From Candidatus Saccharimonadota bacterium (GTDB taxonomy: Bacteria; Patescibacteriota; Saccharimonadia; Saccharimonadales; Saccharimonadaceae), in assembly GCA_049296095.1 (NCBI GenBank), contig JBAQRV010000001.1, positions 210,001 through 242,000 of the forward strand: a DNA stretch of 32,000 nt, in the 5' to 3' direction. The first letter of the stretch is position 1. Every line of letters begins with the position of its first letter. Under the pieces are notes generated by a model, which had not been told where the DNA came from, searched no databases, and saw only the letters and a program-made list of their open reading frames with translations. Both the position numbers and the translations under genes were made by a program. Shown one piece after another: positions 11,723-27,196 of this stretch.

Positions 11723-11928
11723 ATCGTGCTCCTTGTACTTTTTGCTTCTGTTGTCGATAAGTGCGTTGTTTGTTTAGTGAAATAACGTCGCTTGATTCCA
11801 GTGTAGCACAAGCATAATCAGTTGTTGTCAAAATAATTGCATTTTATAGAGGGGGTCACTTTTCATTTATTGTGATTGTCTTAGCGATATGCAATGATAA
11901 GCTTATACATCTCTTGGGGAGGAGAATT

Positions 11929-12846
11929 ATGAAACAATACTTGGATTTGCTACGCGATATCAAACAAAATGGGACGATTAAAACTGACCGCACAGGTACC
12001 GGCACAAAAAGTGTCTTTGGTCGACAGCTTCGTTTTGATTTAAAAGAAGGATTCCCCGCAACCACAACAAAACGACTATTCTTCCGTGGTGTCGTGCATG
12101 AATTACTTTGGTTTTTGGCAGGGGACAGTAACATTAAGTACCTCGTTGATAATGACGTTCACATCTGGACGGAATGGCCATTCAAGGCGTACCTCGTCGC
12201 CACTAACCAGAAGGTTCCAGAACCAAATTCTGATGAATGGAACAAGAAAATGGCAGACTTTACTGAGAAAATTAAAACTGATGATGCATTTGCGAAACAA
12301 TATGGACATCTTGGTCCCGTCTATGGCTACCAATGGCGCCACTGGCCTGACGGGCAGGGTGGCGAAATTGACCAAATAACTGAGGTAATTGATGCAATCA
12401 AAAACACACCAGATTCTCGTAGAATGATCGTCAGCGCCTGGAACGTGGCAGATATTAAAGAAATGGCTAAATCAGGATTACCACCATGCCACTCCCTCTT
12501 TCAGTTCTATGTTGCCGATGGAAAGCTTAGTTGCCAGCTCTACCAGCGGAGCGCTGACACCTTCCTTGGTGTACCGTTCAATATTGCTTCTTACGCACTA
12601 TTGACGCAAATGATCGCTCACGTCACAGGCCTAGAAGTCGGTGAGTTCGTCCATAGCTTCGGCGATACGCATATCTACTTAAACCACCTCGAACAAGTAG
12701 ATAAACAACTCGCGCGCGAGCCAAAAGCGCTTCCTAAACTAAGGTTAAATCCTGATATAAAATCAATCTTTGACTTCACTGTCGATGATATCGAGCTACT
12801 GGACTACAACCCAGATCCCGGCATCAAAGCACCGATTGCCGTCTAG
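11929..12846 (+). CDS. thyA: thymidylate synthase ThyA (long form, 305 aa)
   Basis: [31 protein letters not shown]...[30 protein letters not shown]...[26 protein letters not shown]. The start at 11929 has GGGGAGGAG upstream. The track's start at 11872 would add 19 unconserved residues. Confidence 0.95.
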
Positions 12847-13377: not shown

Positions 13378-14097
13378 ATGAGCGTCTATAGCAATACCGA
13401 TATTTTTAAAGCTATTAAAGACGGCACCATTGTCTGCGTGCCATACAACAAGGATCACGTGTCCGAAGCCAGTCTTGACTTCACACTGGGCCATTATTTT
13501 TATAAGCAAGAATATTCTGAACAAGCAAAAGTCTACAATCCTTTTGATAAAAGTGACGTTGACCGTTATTTCAAAGGCCCGCTCGAAGCCATGCCACACA
13601 AGCAGTGGTGTGAAGAAAATGGCTATGCGCTGTTTGACAATATTCCAGAGGATCATCCAATTATCGTCCTAAGGCCTGGTGAGCGCATCCTTGCCCACAC
13701 TCATGAATTTGTGGGTATCCGCCCTGAAGGTGGCGCGTCCGAGGTAAAATCTCGTAGTAGCTGGGGGCGCAATGGTGTCGCCGTCTGTTTTGATGCTGGT
13801 TGGATCGACCCGGGCTATATTAACCGCATCACCCTTGAGATCTATAACCTCAATCAACACGAATCAGTCGTACTACCAGTGGGTGAGCGTATCGGTCAAT
13901 TGATTTTTCACAAAACTGGCCCCGTTGAAGGTGACTACAGTAATGGACGAAAGGGGATGAGCGGTAAGTACCAGCATACCTCAAATCTTGATGAATTGAT
14001 CGCCACCTGGACACCTGACGCGATGCTACCTCGTGCCTGGAAAGACAAGCGCCGAGTTGCGCCTGTTATCCCAGGACTTGGAAAGGGAATGAAGTAG
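13378..14097 (+). CDS. dcd: dCTP deaminase family protein (long form; possibly a bifunctional dCTP deaminase/dUTPase)
   Basis: It aligns with Dcd: DIFKAIKDGTI..., LRPGERILAHTHEFVG, SRSSWGRNGV, DAGWIDPGYINRITLEIYN (catalytic Glu retained) and GERIGQLIF. AAGGGGAG SD at 13366-13373. Confidence 0.75.
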   Translation: MSVYSNTDIFKAIKDGTIVCVPYNKDHVSEASLDFTLGHYFYKQEYSEQAKVYNPFDKSDVDRYFKGPLEAMPHKQWCEENGYALFDNIPEDHPIIVLRPGERILAHTHEFVGIRPEGGASEVKSRSSWGRNGVAVCFDAGWIDPGYINRITLEIYNLNQHESVVLPVGERIGQLIFHKTGPVEGDYSNGRKGMSGKYQHTSNLDELIATWTPDAMLPRAWKDKRRVAPVIPGLGKGMK

Positions 14098-19406: not shown

Positions 19407-20903
19407 GTGTCGAGGGCATTATACCGAAAATATCGCAGCAAATCGTTGGCAGAAGTCGTTGGACAAAGCCATATCACCGACATCTTGGCACGTGCGATTC
19501 AAGCTGGGCGCATTTCACATGCCTACCTCTTGACTGGACCTCGGGGAGTTGGTAAAACCTCGGTCGCCCGTATTCTCGCCCATGAAATTAATCATCTCCC
19601 TTACAGCGACGATTCAACCCATCTCGACATCATTGAAATTGACGCTGCCAGCAACAACGGCGTCGAGGACGTTCGCGACCTGCGCGAGAAAGTCCAGATT
19701 GCCCCAGTCTCAGCCGAGAAAAAGGTCTACATCATCGACGAGGTACACATGCTATCCAAGGCGGCTTTTAACGCACTCTTAAAAACTCTTGAGGAGCCGC
19801 CAGAGCACATCGTTTTCATCCTAGCGACGACTGATGTTGATAAACTTCCAGCGACTATTGTCAGCCGAACTCAACGCTACGGCTTTCGCGCCATCACCGC
19901 GGAGGATGCGATCAAGCATTTGCGACACATTGCAGACGAAGAAAAAATTAAGATTGATGACGATGCACTGGCAGTTATCGCTCAGCGCGGTGACGGGAGT
20001 TTCCGTGATAGCATCAGCTTGCTCGATCAGCTTTCTAGTCTCACAGATAAGAAAACTGGTATTACCGCTGAACTTATCGAAGCAACCCTAGGCCTTGCCC
20101 CAGCTAAAATTCTAGACGAACTCCTCGTCGCTATTGAGGCACACGATGTTAGTGCTATCGCGGCGCTCCTCGATCAAACAGCTGCCGATGGCATCAGCCC
20201 GGTCACCTTAACCGAGCAATTAACTATCCGCCTGCGCGAGCTCATCAGCGCTAAACCCCAACTCCTACCATTACTCGATAGCCTCTTAGACGTCGCCCGC
20301 AGTAGCCAACCGGGCCTCAAACTCCTCGCATGCCTAGGTACCTTTGCCCTCGAACACAAACCCACCAAAACCGCCGCCCTCGCCACCCCCGTCCTCGAAG
20401 TCACCGCCACCATCGAACAACTCACCAAACAAGCCACAAAAATCTCTCCGAAAGTTTCTAAATCTTCAAGGGAATCTGGTGATGGAACTGCGGCTTTTCC
20501 TGAGCCTCTGCAGCCCGAGTCTGCACTGGCGCAAAGCCCAGTAAAGACCCGGAGCGAAGCCAGATCAGAAAAAGTCGCAGGTTCGGCAGCAGATTTTGTT
20601 TGGGAAGATTTAGTTAATTTTACGAAGAAAAATTATGTCGCCCTCTACAGCGTCCTCTCCAAATGCTCTCCCATTCACGAACCAGGTATCCTTACCTTAT
20701 ATACCAAGAGTGCTTTTTATAAAAAGAAGCTCGACGACGCGAAATATAGCGCCCACCTCTATGAATCACTCCAAAAACTCTGGGGTTATGAACCAACCAT
20801 CCACACCATTCCCACAGCTCCGCCACCAAGTAGTAGCCAGGCCGCCTCGGTAGCTGCTATTATGGGCGGAGGAGAAGAGGTTTCAGTCGAAGCCTCGGAG
20901 TAA
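19407..20903 (+). CDS. dnaX: DNA polymerase III subunit gamma/tau
   Basis: LYRKYRSKSLAEVVGQSHI...HAYLLTGPRGVGKTS...YIIDEVHMLS..AFNALLKTLEEPP..VFILATT...SRTQRY. GTG start with AGGGGAG SD. Confidence 0.9.
   Translation: MSRALYRKYRSKSLAEVVGQSHITDILARAIQAGRISHAYLLTGPRGVGKTSVARILAHEINHLPYSDDSTHLDIIEIDAASNNGVEDVRDLREKVQIAPVSAEKKVYIIDEVHMLSKAAFNALLKTLEEPPEHIVFILATTDVDKLPATIVSRTQRYGFRAITAEDAIKHLRHIADEEKIKIDDDALAVIAQRGDGSFRDSISLLDQLSSLTDKKTGITAELIEATLGLAPAKILDELLVAIEAHDVSAIAALLDQTAADGISPVTLTEQLTIRLRELISAKPQLLPLLDSLLDVARSSQPGLKLLACLGTFALEHKPTKTAALATPVLEVTATIEQLTKQATKISPKVSKSSRESGDGTAAFPEPLQPESALAQSPVKTRSEARSEKVAGSAADFVWEDLVNFTKKNYVALYSVLSKCSPIHEPGILTLYTKSAFYKKKLDDAKYSAHLYESLQKLWGYEPTIHTIPTAPPPSSSQAASVAAIMGGGEEVSVEASE
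20484..20584. repeat. imperfect palindromic (hairpin) element, copy A, in-frame inside the dnaX linker
   Basis: The outer arms 20485-20503 and 20565-20584 pair (19 pairs, with 1 mismatch, 1 G.T and 1 bulge). Core TCTGCAGCCCGAGT (20507-20520) and core ACCCGGAGCGAAGCC (20547-20561) are identical to those in copy B within cysS. Confidence 0.65.
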
Positions 20904-24045: not shown

Positions 24046-24660
24046 GTGGCACGCTTGTTGCCAGTTGCGCTTGAGAAATTGATCGACGAACTTGGCCGCT
24101 TGCCAGGCGTCGGGATGCGTACTGCCGAGCGGTATGCCTATTTCTTGTTGCGTGCCGACCAGCACGTGAATGACAAGCTGGCGACAACCATCCATGACAT
24201 TCACAGTCAAGTAAAAGTCTGTCCGGTGACATTTGCCCTGATTGATGCCGACGAGGACGTCTCGGCGCTCTACAGCGACCCAGAACGCGACAAGAGCCTC
24301 GTCGCGGTGGTTGAGGAACCTCTGGATATTGTCGCCTTAGAGCGCACGGGACAATTCAAAGGTACCTACCACGTCCTCGGCGGTGCTATTAGTCCGATCG
24401 ATGGCATCGGACCCGAACAACTTCATATTCCCGAACTCTTAAAACGCTTGGTTGATGATAACGTCAAGGAAATCATTATCGCTACCAATGCAAGTGTCGA
24501 AGGGGAGTCAACTGCGCTCTTCCTCCAGCGCTACATCAAAGACGCCGGTATCGAAGTCGCCATGAGTCGCCTGGCTCGAGGCATTCCGGTTGGGGTTGAT
24601 TTGGAGTATGCCGATCAAATCACACTTGGACATGCCCTAGAAGGCCGACGCAGCCTCTAG
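24046..24660 (+). CDS. recR: recombination protein RecR (zinc-finger cysteines largely missing)
   Basis: HhH motif LGRLPGVGMRTAERYAYFLL, Toprim region VAVVEEPLDIVALERTGQFKGTYHVLGGAISPIDGIGPEQL...IIIATNASVEGESTA, and C-terminal RLARGIPVGVDLEYAD. Confidence 0.9.
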   Translation: MARLLPVALEKLIDELGRLPGVGMRTAERYAYFLLRADQHVNDKLATTIHDIHSQVKVCPVTFALIDADEDVSALYSDPERDKSLVAVVEEPLDIVALERTGQFKGTYHVLGGAISPIDGIGPEQLHIPELLKRLVDDNVKEIIIATNASVEGESTALFLQRYIKDAGIEVAMSRLARGIPVGVDLEYADQITLGHALEGRRSL

Positions 24661-24678: not shown

Positions 24679-25677
24679 ATGTTTGATAAAGCCCGCGAAC
24701 TGATTGAATCAGCCCAAAAGATCGTTATTATCCAAGCCGAAAACCCAGATGGTGATTCTCTTGGTAGTACTTTAGCATTGGAAGAAATCCTCGGCGACCT
24801 CGGTAAGGACGTCGTCTTATACTGTGCGATTGATATTCCAAAATATATGCATTATATCCAGGGGTGGGATCGGATTGTGAAAGATTGGCCAAAAGATCGG
24901 GATCTCGCAATTATCGTTGATACTTCGAGCGCCCTTTTGATGACAAAAACCTTCGAGACAGCCGGCGTCACACACTTCATGGAGTCACACCCCGTCCTTG
25001 TGATTGATCACCACGCTGAAGTTGTAGGCGACCTTCCCTTTGAACACACGCTCGTCAACGATCTTACTTCAGTCGCAACTGGCCAGGCACTCTACAAAAT
25101 GGCTATTGAAGCGGGCTGGTCAATCAACCCTCAGGCTGCCGAGAATCTATTCTTGTCAATTCAAGCAGACAGCCTTGGCCTGACCACTCAAAATACCGAC
25201 GCTGATGCTTACCGCGTTGCAGCCGAACTGGTTGCACTCGGCGCCAACCCTTCCGTTATCGAAGGGCGACGTCGCGAATACATGAAAAAACCGGCTGATA
25301 TCCTTGCCTATAAGGGTGAGTTAATTGGTCGTATCGAATATAGCCTTGAGGGTAAACTTGCCACTGTCCATATTCCTTGGGCTGAGATCGAGCAGTATAG
25401 TGACCGCTATAATCCAAGCGTCCTGGTGCTCGATGAGATGCGGCTGGTTGAACATGTTGAAATCGCCGTTGCAATCAAAACCTACCCCGACGGCAAGCTG
25501 ACAGGCAAGATCCGCTCAAACGTGCCGATTGCTGGACAAGTCGCTGGCTTCTTTGGCGGTGGCGGACATGACTATTCGGCGGGCTTCAAAGTCTTTGAAG
25601 ACTATGACAAAATAATGACTGAATTAGTAACTGCAGTAGATAAGGCCTTGATCGATTATGAGTCTTCAATTTCATAA
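24679..25677 (+). CDS. DHH/DHHA1 family phosphoesterase (NrnA-like oligoribonuclease/pAp phosphatase)
   Basis: DGDSLGS, VIDHHA and GGGGHDYSAGF (DHHA1 GGGH) motifs. TGcTACAAT (24663-24671) ends 7 nt before the ATG. Confidence 0.8.
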   Translation: MFDKARELIESAQKIVIIQAENPDGDSLGSTLALEEILGDLGKDVVLYCAIDIPKYMHYIQGWDRIVKDWPKDRDLAIIVDTSSALLMTKTFETAGVTHFMESHPVLVIDHHAEVVGDLPFEHTLVNDLTSVATGQALYKMAIEAGWSINPQAAENLFLSIQADSLGLTTQNTDADAYRVAAELVALGANPSVIEGRRREYMKKPADILAYKGELIGRIEYSLEGKLATVHIPWAEIEQYSDRYNPSVLVLDEMRLVEHVEIAVAIKTYPDGKLTGKIRSNVPIAGQVAGFFGGGGHDYSAGFKVFEDYDKIMTELVTAVDKALIDYESSIS

Positions 25678-27196
25678 CCAACTCACCAGAACCGTTGACC
25701 CCTTCACTCCTCAAGTCGAAGGACAAGTAAGTCTCTATACCTGTGGACCGACCGTCTATGACTATCCGCACGTTGGTAACTGGTCTGGGTATATCTATTG
25801 GGACGTACTCGTGCGCACACTGCAAGCGAATGGCCTCAAGGTTGATCGTGTCATGAACATCACCGATGTGGGCCATCTAACAGGCGAGAACGAAGGTGAT
25901 GCTGATCGAGGGGAAGACAAGCTCGAAAAGGGTGCTCGTCGCGAAGGTAAAACCGCCTGGGAAGTTGCTGCTTTTTATACCGAAGATTTCATGAAGGGCA
26001 TTGAGCGTCTCGGTCTTATCATGCCAACTCACATCACTAAAGCAACCGACTACATCGACCAGCAGCTCGCCCTCGTTCGCACACTCAAAGAAAAGGGCTT
26101 TACCTACGAAATCGACGACGGTATCTACTTTGATACTGCCAAGTTCCCAACCTACGCTGACTTTGCCGGCCTAGACCTCGAAGCCCAACGCGCCGGTGCC
26201 CGCGTCGAATACAACCCAGAAAAAAGAAATCACAGCGACTTCGCTCTATGGAAATTCACCCCAGCTGGCGAAACCCGTGATATGGAATGGAAGACTCCCG
26301 ATGACTTGCTTGATTCCACATCTGTCGAAACATCTGCAGCCCGAGTTTCCGATCAGGAAACCCGGAGCGAAGCCGTTTCGTCAGATGTCGGAAGCAAGGA
26401 AGTTAGAATGGGTTTCCCAGGCTGGCATCTCGAATGCTCAGCCATGGCGATGTCACTGCTTGGTAACACTTTGGATATGCATACAGGTGGCATTGATCAT
26501 ATTCCAGTGCACCATACCAACGAAATCGCCCAATCAGAGGCCGCAACCGGCGTGATATTTAGCAATTTCTGGCTTCATAATAATCACCTCAAGGTCAACG
26601 GCACCAAGATTAGTAAGTCACTTGGAAACGGCTATACACTCGATGACCTCGAGAAAAAGGGCTATAGTCCGCTCGACTTCCGCCTCTTCGTCCTCCAAAG
26701 CCAATACCACAATGAGGGTAATTTTACGTTCGAAAACCTTGAAGCCGCCAAGAACCGCCTCCTCAACTGGCGAAATATCGCCGCTTTGCGCCACCAGACC
26801 CACGGCACACTCGATGATGGCGACGACCGATCTGTTGCGCTGTATGCAACCTCCCAAGCAATTGTTGAGGCCCTTTCAAACGATCTCGATACACCCGAAG
26901 CTTTCCGAATCATCGACGAAGCCTTCGATCAGCTTACCAATACTTCGATTGACAAGATCCATCAACACGCACTGGTGAGCGTTCTTGAAACGATTGACGA
27001 TACACTAGGGCTCCAGCTTATTACGACCACACCGGACATATCTGATGATCAAAAGCGAACTATCCTGGAACGCGAACGTGCCCGCGAGAATAGGGACTTT
27101 AAGACTGCCGACAGCCTGCGAGATCAGCTGGAAAAAGAAGGTGTCACTGTTCGTGACACCTCAACAGGTCCAATTTGGGAGTATCTTAAGATTTAG
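25658..27196 (+). CDS. cysS: cysteine--tRNA ligase with a ~36-aa insertion in the catalytic core
   Basis: LYTCGPTVYDYPHVGN (HIGH-type), PGWHLECSAM, GGIDHIPVHHTNEIAQSEA, and KISKSLGN (KMSKS). The start overlaps the upstream gene by 20 nt. Confidence 0.95.
   Translation: MSLQFHNQLTRTVDPFTPQVEGQVSLYTCGPTVYDYPHVGNWSGYIYWDVLVRTLQANGLKVDRVMNITDVGHLTGENEGDADRGEDKLEKGARREGKTAWEVAAFYTEDFMKGIERLGLIMPTHITKATDYIDQQLALVRTLKEKGFTYEIDDGIYFDTAKFPTYADFAGLDLEAQRAGARVEYNPEKRNHSDFALWKFTPAGETRDMEWKTPDDLLDSTSVETSAARVSDQETRSEAVSSDVGSKEVRMGFPGWHLECSAMAMSLLGNTLDMHTGGIDHIPVHHTNEIAQSEAATGVIFSNFWLHNNHLKVNGTKISKSLGNGYTLDDLEKKGYSPLDFRLFVLQSQYHNEGNFTFENLEAAKNRLLNWRNIAALRHQTHGTLDDGDDRSVALYATSQAIVEALSNDLDTPEAFRIIDEAFDQLTNTSIDKIHQHALVSVLETIDDTLGLQLITTTPDISDDQKRTILERERARENRDFKTADSLRDQLEKEGVTVRDTSTGPIWEYLKI
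26318..26388. repeat. imperfect palindromic (hairpin) element, copy B, in-frame inside the cysS catalytic core
   Basis: ACATCTGTCGAAAC (26318-26331) pairs with GTTTCGTCAGATGT (26375-26388): 14 bp with 1 mismatch. There is an inner stem 26341-26350/26356-26365. Core TCTGCAGCCCGAGT is at 26333-26346 and core ACCCGGAGCGAAGCC at 26360-26374. Confidence 0.7.

Follow-up and report, generated by a model that had tools for sequence, protein, structure and literature searches.

Within dnaX, which encodes DNA polymerase III gamma/tau, in a 32,000-nt stretch of a Candidatus Saccharimonadota genome (GenBank assembly GCA_049296095.1, contig JBAQRV010000001.1, positions 210,001 to 242,000; hereafter the window), lies a hairpin-forming segment whose two short core sequences recur in the cysteinyl-tRNA synthetase gene cysS, 5.8 kb away. 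Our reading, to which we give a probability of roughly 0.78, is that this segment is a copy of a non-autonomous family of short palindromic repeats of Saccharibacteria, which behaves like the Rickettsia palindromic elements (RPEs) and is tolerated in permissive loops of proteins. A preliminary description of the segment had offered two options, a mobile or REP-like (repetitive extragenic palindrome) element tolerated in frame, or a structured nucleic-acid motif recognised by some protein. The further copies, the orthologues without the segment and the compensated changes in its helices favour the first option. The family appears to be undescribed, and shows behaviour of the known RPE kind.

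Whole copies are imperfect hairpins of 80-135 bp. In each of them a conserved asymmetric module, consisting of (A)TCTGCAGCCCGAG, an inner hairpin of 12-36 nt and CCCGGAGCGAAGCC, is clasped by mutually pairing arms that are specific to the copy.

Two copies in dnaX and cysS

The element in dnaX (19407-20903, + strand) occupies the length-variable linker that follows the ATPase domains (Pfam DNA_pol3_delta2, AAA and DNAX_ATPase_lid, all within residues 10-208), to which it adds about 32 codons. That in cysS (25658-27196, + strand; cysteine--tRNA ligase, Candidatus Microsaccharimonas sp., in the protein record) adds 26 codons to a loop, and the Pfam matches of this gene are tRNA-synt_1e, split in two around the insert, and CysS_C. 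In both genes core 1, TCTGCAGCCCGAGT, is followed by core 2, ACCCGGAGCGAAGCC, and all four occurrences are exact and on the + strand (20507-20520 and 20547-20561 in dnaX, 26333-26346 and 26360-26374 in cysS), in agreement with the sequence claims of the preliminary description, all of which hold. The spacer between the cores, which forms the inner hairpin, measures 26 nt in dnaX (20521-20546) and 13 nt in cysS (26347-26359). From these lengths and from the translations across the element (PLQPESALAQSPVKTRSEARSEK in DnaX and VETSAARVSDQETRSEAVSSD in CysRS) it follows that core 1 is read in two frames, as LQPES in DnaX and SAARV in CysRS, and core 2 in one, as TRSEA in both, as had been claimed. 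For a stretch of 32 kb, one isolated repeat of 14 or 15 nt is at about the level of chance, but the joint pattern TCTGCAGCCCGAGT-N(5-35)-ACCCGGAGCGAAGCC occurs twice in the window and never in 100 dinucleotide-shuffled versions of it, which upholds the earlier argument that a single match could be fortuitous and that the colinear pair is very unlikely to be so. No third copy was found in the window by a covariance-model search with filters off.

As folded, the dnaX copy forms one long imperfect hairpin (20476-20592), in which a copy-specific left arm (20476-20503) pairs with the right arm (20565-20592), and the cysS copy likewise folds into a hairpin (26304-26403). The arm pairing proposed earlier for dnaX, between 20485-20503 and 20565-20584, stands with 17 Watson-Crick pairs, one G.T, one C.A and one bulge, although the true hairpin is longer than was then thought. 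The proposed helix between the two cores also stands, with the correction that it is interrupted in a fixed manner, by an A.C mismatch, by the bulge of one A and by an internal loop (GAA/A). The heptamer d(GCGAAGC), to which the same description pointed, is said by Hirao et al. to form an unusually stable mini-hairpin. Folding energies are -27.6 kcal/mol as DNA (z -3.6) and -55 kcal/mol as RNA (z -4.8) for the dnaX copy and -31.5 kcal/mol as DNA (z -7.4) for the cysS copy, and in a sliding scan the two rank sixth and first, respectively, among the 120-nt DNA hairpins of the window. Both are missed by an inverted-repeat finder with 8-nt seeds because their arms are interrupted. The covariance model of the dispersed family (R1, described below) matches 20476-20597 with 73 bits (E 5e-21) and 26302-26409 with 83 bits. 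The window's CysRS is also found on an independent Logan assembly, which makes an assembly artefact unlikely.

Both inserts are absent from some orthologues. Alignment with an element-free dnaX (locus L194; P0125, 466 aa, 77% nucleotide identity) identifies 20493-20588 as the missing DNA, about 96 nt or 32 codons with edges that are ambiguous by a few bases, and alignment with an element-free cysS (L193) identifies 26308-26385, 78 nt or 26 codons. DnaX orthologues range from 462 to 534 aa with a hypervariable linker. The preliminary description had suggested comparing them for presence or absence of the segment, and element-free forms do exist, namely the shortest ones (462-466 aa), which are without any insert. 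Among the 120 closest DnaX proteins at least 61 carry signatures of this family (family 1), which combine the frames in two ways (L(Q/E)PE...RSEA and LQPE...GAKP), and further ones have inserts of other kinds.

In CysRS the slot lies between DMEW and GFPGWH in the orthologue alignment. Of the 120 closest CysRS proteins, 82 are empty here, 18 carry the element forward (the ETSAARVS...ETRSEAVS type), five carry it reversed (ETASLR.S...ETRAADVS), three have a different module family (ETKSEVQ) and 12 have other inserts. The reversed peptide, ETASLR...ETRAADVS, is the exact translation of the reverse complement of the same element DNA. Indeed, between two cysS genes that are 87-88% identical outside the insert (L083 and L084), the insert of about 110 nt is reverse-complemented at about 95% identity. 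The same DNA thus serves in more than one frame, and in cysS also in either orientation, which bears out the claim that conservation is at the level of nucleotides and not of protein. Distant CysRS genes are short, so that the insert is the derived state. About six close cysS relatives in a metagenome scan, among the matches listed, are all without the element.

The AlphaFold model of the window's CysRS (predicted template modelling score 0.84) has a predicted local distance difference test score (pLDDT) below 50 only at residues 221-247, which are the insert, and at two short segments. By prediction, the insert peptides thus sit where the fold would be left undisturbed, in a low-pLDDT loop of CysRS and in the length-variable linker of DnaX. 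Residues 76-83, also with pLDDT below 50, cover the region of an unrelated 12-nt in-frame indel of cysS (25879-25890, peptide GENE), which is common to a few orthologues (P0021, P0035 and P0042).

Comparison of filled genes shows where conservation is concentrated. Between the window's cysS and its orthologue L195 (77% identity gene-wide) the longest identical run is the 48-nt module (26326-26373), and the next longest is 20 nt. In dnaX the window and L196 share fixed cores, and the inner stem and both arms have changed with compensation. A closer cysS pair, L195 (filled) and L196 (empty), which are 84% identical, differs by 79-81 nt, that is, by the module plus arms of about 17 nt. Filled cysS alleles have host flanks outside the insert that are more complementary than those of empty alleles. 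No clear target-site duplication (TSD) is seen in the filled and empty pairs, which share only 77-84% identity.

A family dispersed through Saccharibacteria

A census of 185,579 species, one genome each, with the pattern AGCCCGAG-N(10-40)-CCCGGAGCGAAGC, which fixes 21 core bases, returned 107 stretches. Scores of R1, built from 57 aligned non-redundant copies, are bimodal, with 67 full-length copies at 49-105 bits (model positions 1-122) in 47 assemblies. About 40 matches in high-GC Actinomycetota, Myxococcota and other groups score 13-26 bits, nearly all at core positions only, and we reject them as chance. The search for further copies in related genomes that the preliminary description envisaged thus yields them in open reading frames (ORFs) and between genes alike. 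The DNA around the 67 copies has 39-58% GC, and the labels of the 47 assemblies are almost all Saccharibacteria, Saccharimonadales, Nanosynbacter or Patescibacteria. Two full-length copies at 73-80 bits lie on contigs of 49-52% GC labelled Dongiaceae (L132, DATMTU010000174.1) and Verrucomicrobiia (L136, DATJIC010000057.1), and these contigs are probably mis-binned Saccharibacteria.

Assemblies carry one to four copies each, with four in JBAQEV01, three each in MKSO01, CAOHYA01, JBBRCG01 and DASTSD01, and one in the complete oral-taxon genome CP128407.1. Three exact-core copies are present in each of two single-scaffold, near-complete genomes of about 0.9 Mb; they span no more than 155 kb on one scaffold (900 kb) and 86 kb on the other (926 kb). 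A search of 665 kb of flanking sequence with R1 added only two diverged copies (L099:5617-5737, - strand, 64 bits; L129:7873-7991, + strand, 32 bits), each a few kb from an exact-core copy. These diverged neighbours, together with the groupings of three, hint at local clustering. Viral contigs contain no match to the pattern, and we see no sign of a phage vector; in 1.38 Mb there are neither solitary cores nor a composite of core 1, gene and core 2. A peptide search for further hosts gave one candidate only. The codons of the conserved CysRS motif IAQSEA in cysS (CCCAGAGCGAAGC; L013:668, and position 710 on the - strand of L088) lie about 150 nt downstream of the insertion site and are one mismatch from core 2; their count is at the level of chance for 1.4 Mb and we set them aside.

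The anatomy of the family is borne out by the 57 aligned copies, in which TCTGC and a trailing C, absent from the search pattern, are at least 90% conserved. The helix that RNAalifold draws between the cores is irregular: one A is unpaired, another is bulged, and it contains an A.C mismatch and a GAA/A loop. In the inner stem 90-94% of the alignment cells are paired, with at least four pair types per position, and over the whole structure 77.7% are paired; the figure is 62.5% for column shuffles and no more than 46% for slid partners. The paired fraction above that of shuffles and the compensatory changes at the orthologous dnaX site support the helices, a point on which the earlier claim could have failed. 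Arms start 0-2 nt from the cores, reach at least about 20 nt in nearly all copies, and sum over the copies to 1585 Watson-Crick pairs, 110 G.T, 55 A.C and 227 other mismatches. Many copies also have distal boxes, AGAGCCGC..TCGCTACC on the left and GGTAGCGAAAAGGCGAAC on the right, in a long form of about 135 nt, of which the window copies are degenerate versions.

When copies in ORFs shorter than 150 aa are counted as intergenic and those in ORFs of at least 150 aa as coding, 26 of 66 copies are intergenic and the other 40 are coding. Every coding copy examined lies in an uninterrupted ORF of at least 150 aa, which speaks for an element tolerated in frame. By Pfam, the hosts comprise at least 15 unrelated housekeeping gene families. 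ATP synthase delta (atpH) is the host in 12 oral-type genomes and topoisomerase I (topA) in four. Three copies each are found at the C-terminal end of Dus, in S-adenosylmethionine-dependent methyltransferases and in RNase HII-UPF0102 (rnhB-UPF0102), and two each in AlaRS (alaS), in MnmA and, besides the window, in CysRS. DnaX provides one case besides the window, and single cases are an RluA-type pseudouridine synthase, a TrmA-like enzyme, TsaD, an ABC-F ATPase, LeuRS and TatD. Two copies stand apart, one of them at the upstream edge of an exonuclease I gene and the other in a long ORF without a Pfam match (L116).

Genes beside the intergenic copies are ordinary and intact (parB/lepB, miaA, dus, priA, tmRNA, hpf, ndk, rmuC, rpoD, comEC and others). 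The ORFs that flank these copies are distinct intact genes, and there is thus no evidence of out-of-frame copies that would require splicing or ribosomal bypass. No transposase was found among the neighbours of the copies examined or in the window. A block of about 80 nt (..GGTCCTCGGCCAGTCAGG..CCCCAGACCCCGGGG..) directly 5' of the element at the rpmA-upstream locus is kept across genomes (L162:5900-6060, L122, L151, L089 and L163); it matches nothing in Rfam and could be a structured RNA not yet described, or the end of a gene.

Sites are reused across genomes with differing arms, module subtypes or orientations, as seen in the cysS loop, the dnaX linker, MnmA, topA and the 3' ends of dus and miaA. 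Within genomes, derived subtypes of the module are common to different genes. In JBBRCG01 an unusual short inner hairpin, CGCCCCAAAGCG (CGCCCTTGGGCG in dus), is shared by cysS, a rluA-like gene and dus, and similar sharing of a subtype between genes is seen in MKSO01, CAOHYA01 and JBAQEV01. This sharing points to spread or homogenisation within genomes. Between such paralogous copies the likeness stops about 5-12 nt beyond the cores, and the outer arms are unrelated yet self-complementary.

A second module, GAAGAGAC-TAAAAGCGAAGTGC-hairpin-GAAACGGTCTCTT, is found at the same dnaX and cysS sites in L085 (GCA_049276535.1, JBASWP010000001.1; 4170-4300 and 10620-10760). Its cores of 17 and 13 nt are identical between the two copies, its peptide is ETKSEVQ, and it is not detected by R1. 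Set against family 1, it indicates that the module type is concordant within a genome and differs between genomes.

Strand, orientation and alternative readings

Pairing in the arms is not symmetrical between the strands. On the forward strand of the element G.T outnumbers A.C by 42:8 in intergenic copies (sign test over copies 14:3) and by 15:6 in copies antisense to the host gene, and the ratio is 25:17 in sense copies. This excess is not compositional, because the + strand of the window has a negative GC skew. It suggests that the forward strand has a part to play when folded by itself, be it as DNA on the lagging-strand template or as RNA, orthologous copies not being independent in these counts. 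The preliminary description's second option, a motif recognised by a protein, fits the G.T excess and the invariant cores, and such recognition may be the mechanism that stands behind the first option.

The same asymmetry speaks in favour of an alternative reading, a selected cis-acting nucleic-acid site in place of selfish DNA, in which the core helix on its long stem would be bound or processed by a conserved Saccharibacteria protein, as single-stranded DNA at the replication fork or as RNA, and the genic copies would be tolerated carriers. Such a site would also account for cores that are identical in very distant Saccharibacteria despite so few copies per assembly, for a module that is far more conserved than its host gene, synonymous positions included, and for the groupings of three copies on the two large scaffolds. 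We nevertheless consider this reading unlikely, since occupancy is patchy in close relatives, different genes are struck in different genomes, and some genomes have no copies at these sites or have a module of a different family there. Orientation relative to transcription, for which convergent and divergent gene pairs were left out as uninformative, is the same in 11 coding sites and opposite in five, and the same in seven co-directional intergenic pairs and opposite in three. This bias, 18:8 overall, is weak, and together with the occurrence of both orientations at one site it makes an obligatory function as sense-strand RNA unlikely. A role as terminator we reject, a clear T-tract past the right arm being present in only one of the intergenic copies inspected (L093), by eye and with no terminator scan run. 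Nor do copies match a known RNA family: across 30 sources no curated Rfam 15 model overlaps any copy at gathering score, and permissive matches are at the level of chance (E 3.8-9).

The reversed inserts of cysS raise the further possibility of a programmed intragenic inverton, whose arms would serve as recombination sites for an invertase and which would provide a population with two versions of CysRS or DnaX. In its favour are the forward and reverse-complement forms at one cysS site, both in frame, and a position in mnmA that is held in opposite orientations by L132 and L182. However, the orientations differ between genomes at the level of species (those 87-88% identical in cysS), with no case seen inside a single population, the surroundings of the copies examined contain no gene for an invertase or recombinase, the peptide is predicted to be a low-confidence loop with no evident function, and many copies are intergenic. 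We regard this explanation as very improbable. A local event such as ectopic gene conversion between dnaX and cysS, a selected shared peptide motif, or chance, to which the 5.8 kb between the genes and the TRSEA common to both might point, has next to no probability given 67 copies in 47 other assemblies, at least 15 gene families and intergenic DNA, core 1 in different frames here and copies in three frames and both orientations elsewhere, and a joint pattern that appears in 0 of 100 shuffles.

Several observations also weigh against our own reading of a dispersed palindromic repeat. A simple cut-or-copy-and-paste unit does not account for modules that are near-identical within one genome and yet have unrelated arms, and in another genome a different module family takes up the very same sites. 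Copy number is low, at one to four exact-core copies per assembly, where some Rickettsia have hundreds of RPEs. From oral Nanosynbacter to soil Saccharimonadales the cores do not vary, which is more than a neutral selfish element predicts, although this invariance is in part a matter of ascertainment because the search pattern demanded 21 core bases. In the copies, their neighbours, the window, and the filled and empty pairs we found no transposase, no clear TSD and no conserved terminal inverted repeat (TIR). Mobility itself we infer, no insertion event having been observed between near-identical genomes.

If the element is such a repeat, its history might run as follows. A trans-acting enzyme could recognise the irregular core helix on one folded single strand and thereby bring about movement, and insertions would presumably persist only at places where additional residues do no harm. 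The module is free of stop codons in about 2.3-2.5 of three frames, in either orientation and in coding and intergenic copies alike (1.7-2.0 in shuffles), which may help it to survive in genes; in the arms a shortage of stops is limited to coding copies, as if selection had filtered them. Copies would then spread or be homogenised within a genome, a process to which the shared subtypes point. Recombination or template switching between the arms could flip the module in place with the frame kept, as the pattern in cysS suggests. Template switching within the hairpin could keep the arms complementary, or extend them into host flanks.

The unrelated arms of near-identical modules may be accommodated in several ways. 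The module could enter or convert the apex of resident hairpins; the arms could form locally by fold-back or template switching, with which the more complementary flanks of filled cysS alleles may be compared; or short-patch conversion anchored on the conserved cores could homogenise the modules of old copies. A bolder proposal, which we regard as doubtful, is that the mobile or convertible unit is the central module only, some 55-85 nt, recognised by an enzyme as a folded single strand, which homes into or overwrites hairpin apices and whose arms are built from host flanks (a spreading palindrome). This would explain near-identical modules with unrelated arms, site reuse, in-place flipping and the strand-specific G.T excess, and, if true, would be a mode of propagation distinct from transposons with TIR and TSD, from REPs with their REP-associated tyrosine transposases (RAYTs) and from integron cassettes.

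Relation to known systems and wider bearing

Among described repeats the closest in behaviour are the RPEs (Ogata et al., 2000, Science 290:347, as cited in PMC2996958, PMC10969869 and PMC1166351), which are about 150 bp long. R. conorii has 44 copies, nearly half of them in frame in ORFs, and R. felis has 728, of which 85 are in ORFs (PMC10969869, PMC1166351). Protein-coding palindromic repeats are also attributed to Wolbachia and Methanocaldococcus jannaschii in references given by PMC2996958. The Saccharibacteria family shares with RPEs that short palindromes lie in coding and non-coding DNA of a host-dependent bacterium with a reduced genome, in frame in unrelated housekeeping genes, with a peptide compatible with the fold, no linked transposase, and presence or absence among orthologues. 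It differs in that its hosts belong to an unrelated phylum, the likeness being one of behaviour, and in that assemblies have one to four copies as against the 44 and 728 of the two Rickettsia species. In addition, its central asymmetric module is conserved and its arms are copy-specific, and its sites are reused by another module. Every RPE is said to encode a peptide that is conserved (PMC10969869), whereas the peptide here is not, the same DNA being read in several frames and both orientations. We therefore file the element as RPE-like in behaviour and not as an RPE. Full-text literature searches found no such element described for Saccharibacteria or Patescibacteria.

REPs are extragenic, high-copy sequences of 20-40 bp with a GTAG or CGTC tag (PMC3733652). 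With REPs, their mosaic assemblies (bacterial interspersed mosaic elements) and RAYTs, and with the ends of the insertion sequences (ISs) IS200/IS605, the element shares imperfect hairpins whose irregularities may be recognised and, as far as the filled and empty pairs show, the lack of TIRs and TSDs; the excess of G.T on one strand is what single-strand recognition would give. The element is set apart from REPs by its size (80-135 bp), its often intragenic location and its one to four copies. A tblastn search of 1.76 Mb of loci with an IS200 TnpA query gave no match at E <2 to a Y1 (HUH), RAYT or IS200-type gene, a weak negative in view of the partial genome coverage.

[quoted passage not shown] MITEs are defined by shared TIRs, a TSD and a parent IS, whereas here the termini differ among copies, paralogues share only the module and about 5-12 nt per side, no clear duplication is seen in the filled and empty pairs, and no parent IS was detected beside the copies or in the window. 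PARCELs consist of a 25-aa amphipathic repeat arrayed in tandem, and occur in proteins of the membrane or surface (PMC2996958); in contrast, the copies here are solitary and lie in cytoplasmic housekeeping enzymes.

Two further likenesses concern mechanism. The attC sites of integrons carry the conserved boxes RYYYAAC and GTTRRRY at their outer ends and lie in cassette arrays beside intI. Like attC, the element favours structure over sequence, has unpaired or extrahelical bases that mark one strand, and has a variable central or terminal structure; unlike attC, its conserved part is central and its copies are solitary inside housekeeping genes. Single-strand recognition of the attC or HUH type is thus a mechanistic analogy only. 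A resemblance of the GAAAC/GTTTC proximal arms to parS or attC was rejected, the order and position of the half-sites not fitting. Intragenic invertons, reportedly the subject of Chanin et al. in Nature in 2024, have in common with the element a segment flanked by inverted repeats within a gene whose frame is kept in both orientations. The element differs in being dispersed and not a gene-specific switch, in having no invertase that we could find, and in orientations that differ between species.

With this family, selfish palindromes in essential genes, a phenomenon of Rickettsiales, Wolbachia and one archaeon, are also seen in the Candidate Phyla Radiation, whose members likewise have reduced genomes and depend on hosts. 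This suggests that a reduced genome and the toleration of inserts of this kind are linked in general. Part of the puzzling variation in length, and of the low-complexity inserts, in Saccharibacteria DnaX, CysRS, TopA, AlaRS, LeuRS, MnmA, TsaD and ATP synthase delta is thereby explained, and annotators and structure modellers should expect inserts in the housekeeping proteins of this group. The unusual anatomy, with an invariant asymmetric core, copy-specific arms, in-place inversion and site reuse, makes a recognition mechanism testable, and those Saccharibacteria that can be cultivated and are open to genetics have one copy only, in atpH. The cores also provide a compact lineage marker that can flag mis-binned Saccharibacteria contigs in metagenome-assembled genomes.

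Other features of the window are recorded here in their own right. The second most stable 120-nt DNA hairpin, at -31.9 kcal/mol, lies inside recR (24241-24360; inverted repeat 24265-24279 / 24331-24345) and is probably not an insertion, because the length of RecR is normal. Three proteins are longer than expected: ThyA (11872-12846) has 324 aa against the 266 positions of its Pfam profile, a dCTP-deaminase-like protein (13378-14097) has about 24 extra residues, and the L1 ORF (9991-10986) has 130 residues before the L1 domain. These extra lengths may be further in-frame insertions or extensions. Upstream of rplJ, 16195-16332 matches the Rfam ribosomal protein L10 leader (RF00557) with 50 bits.

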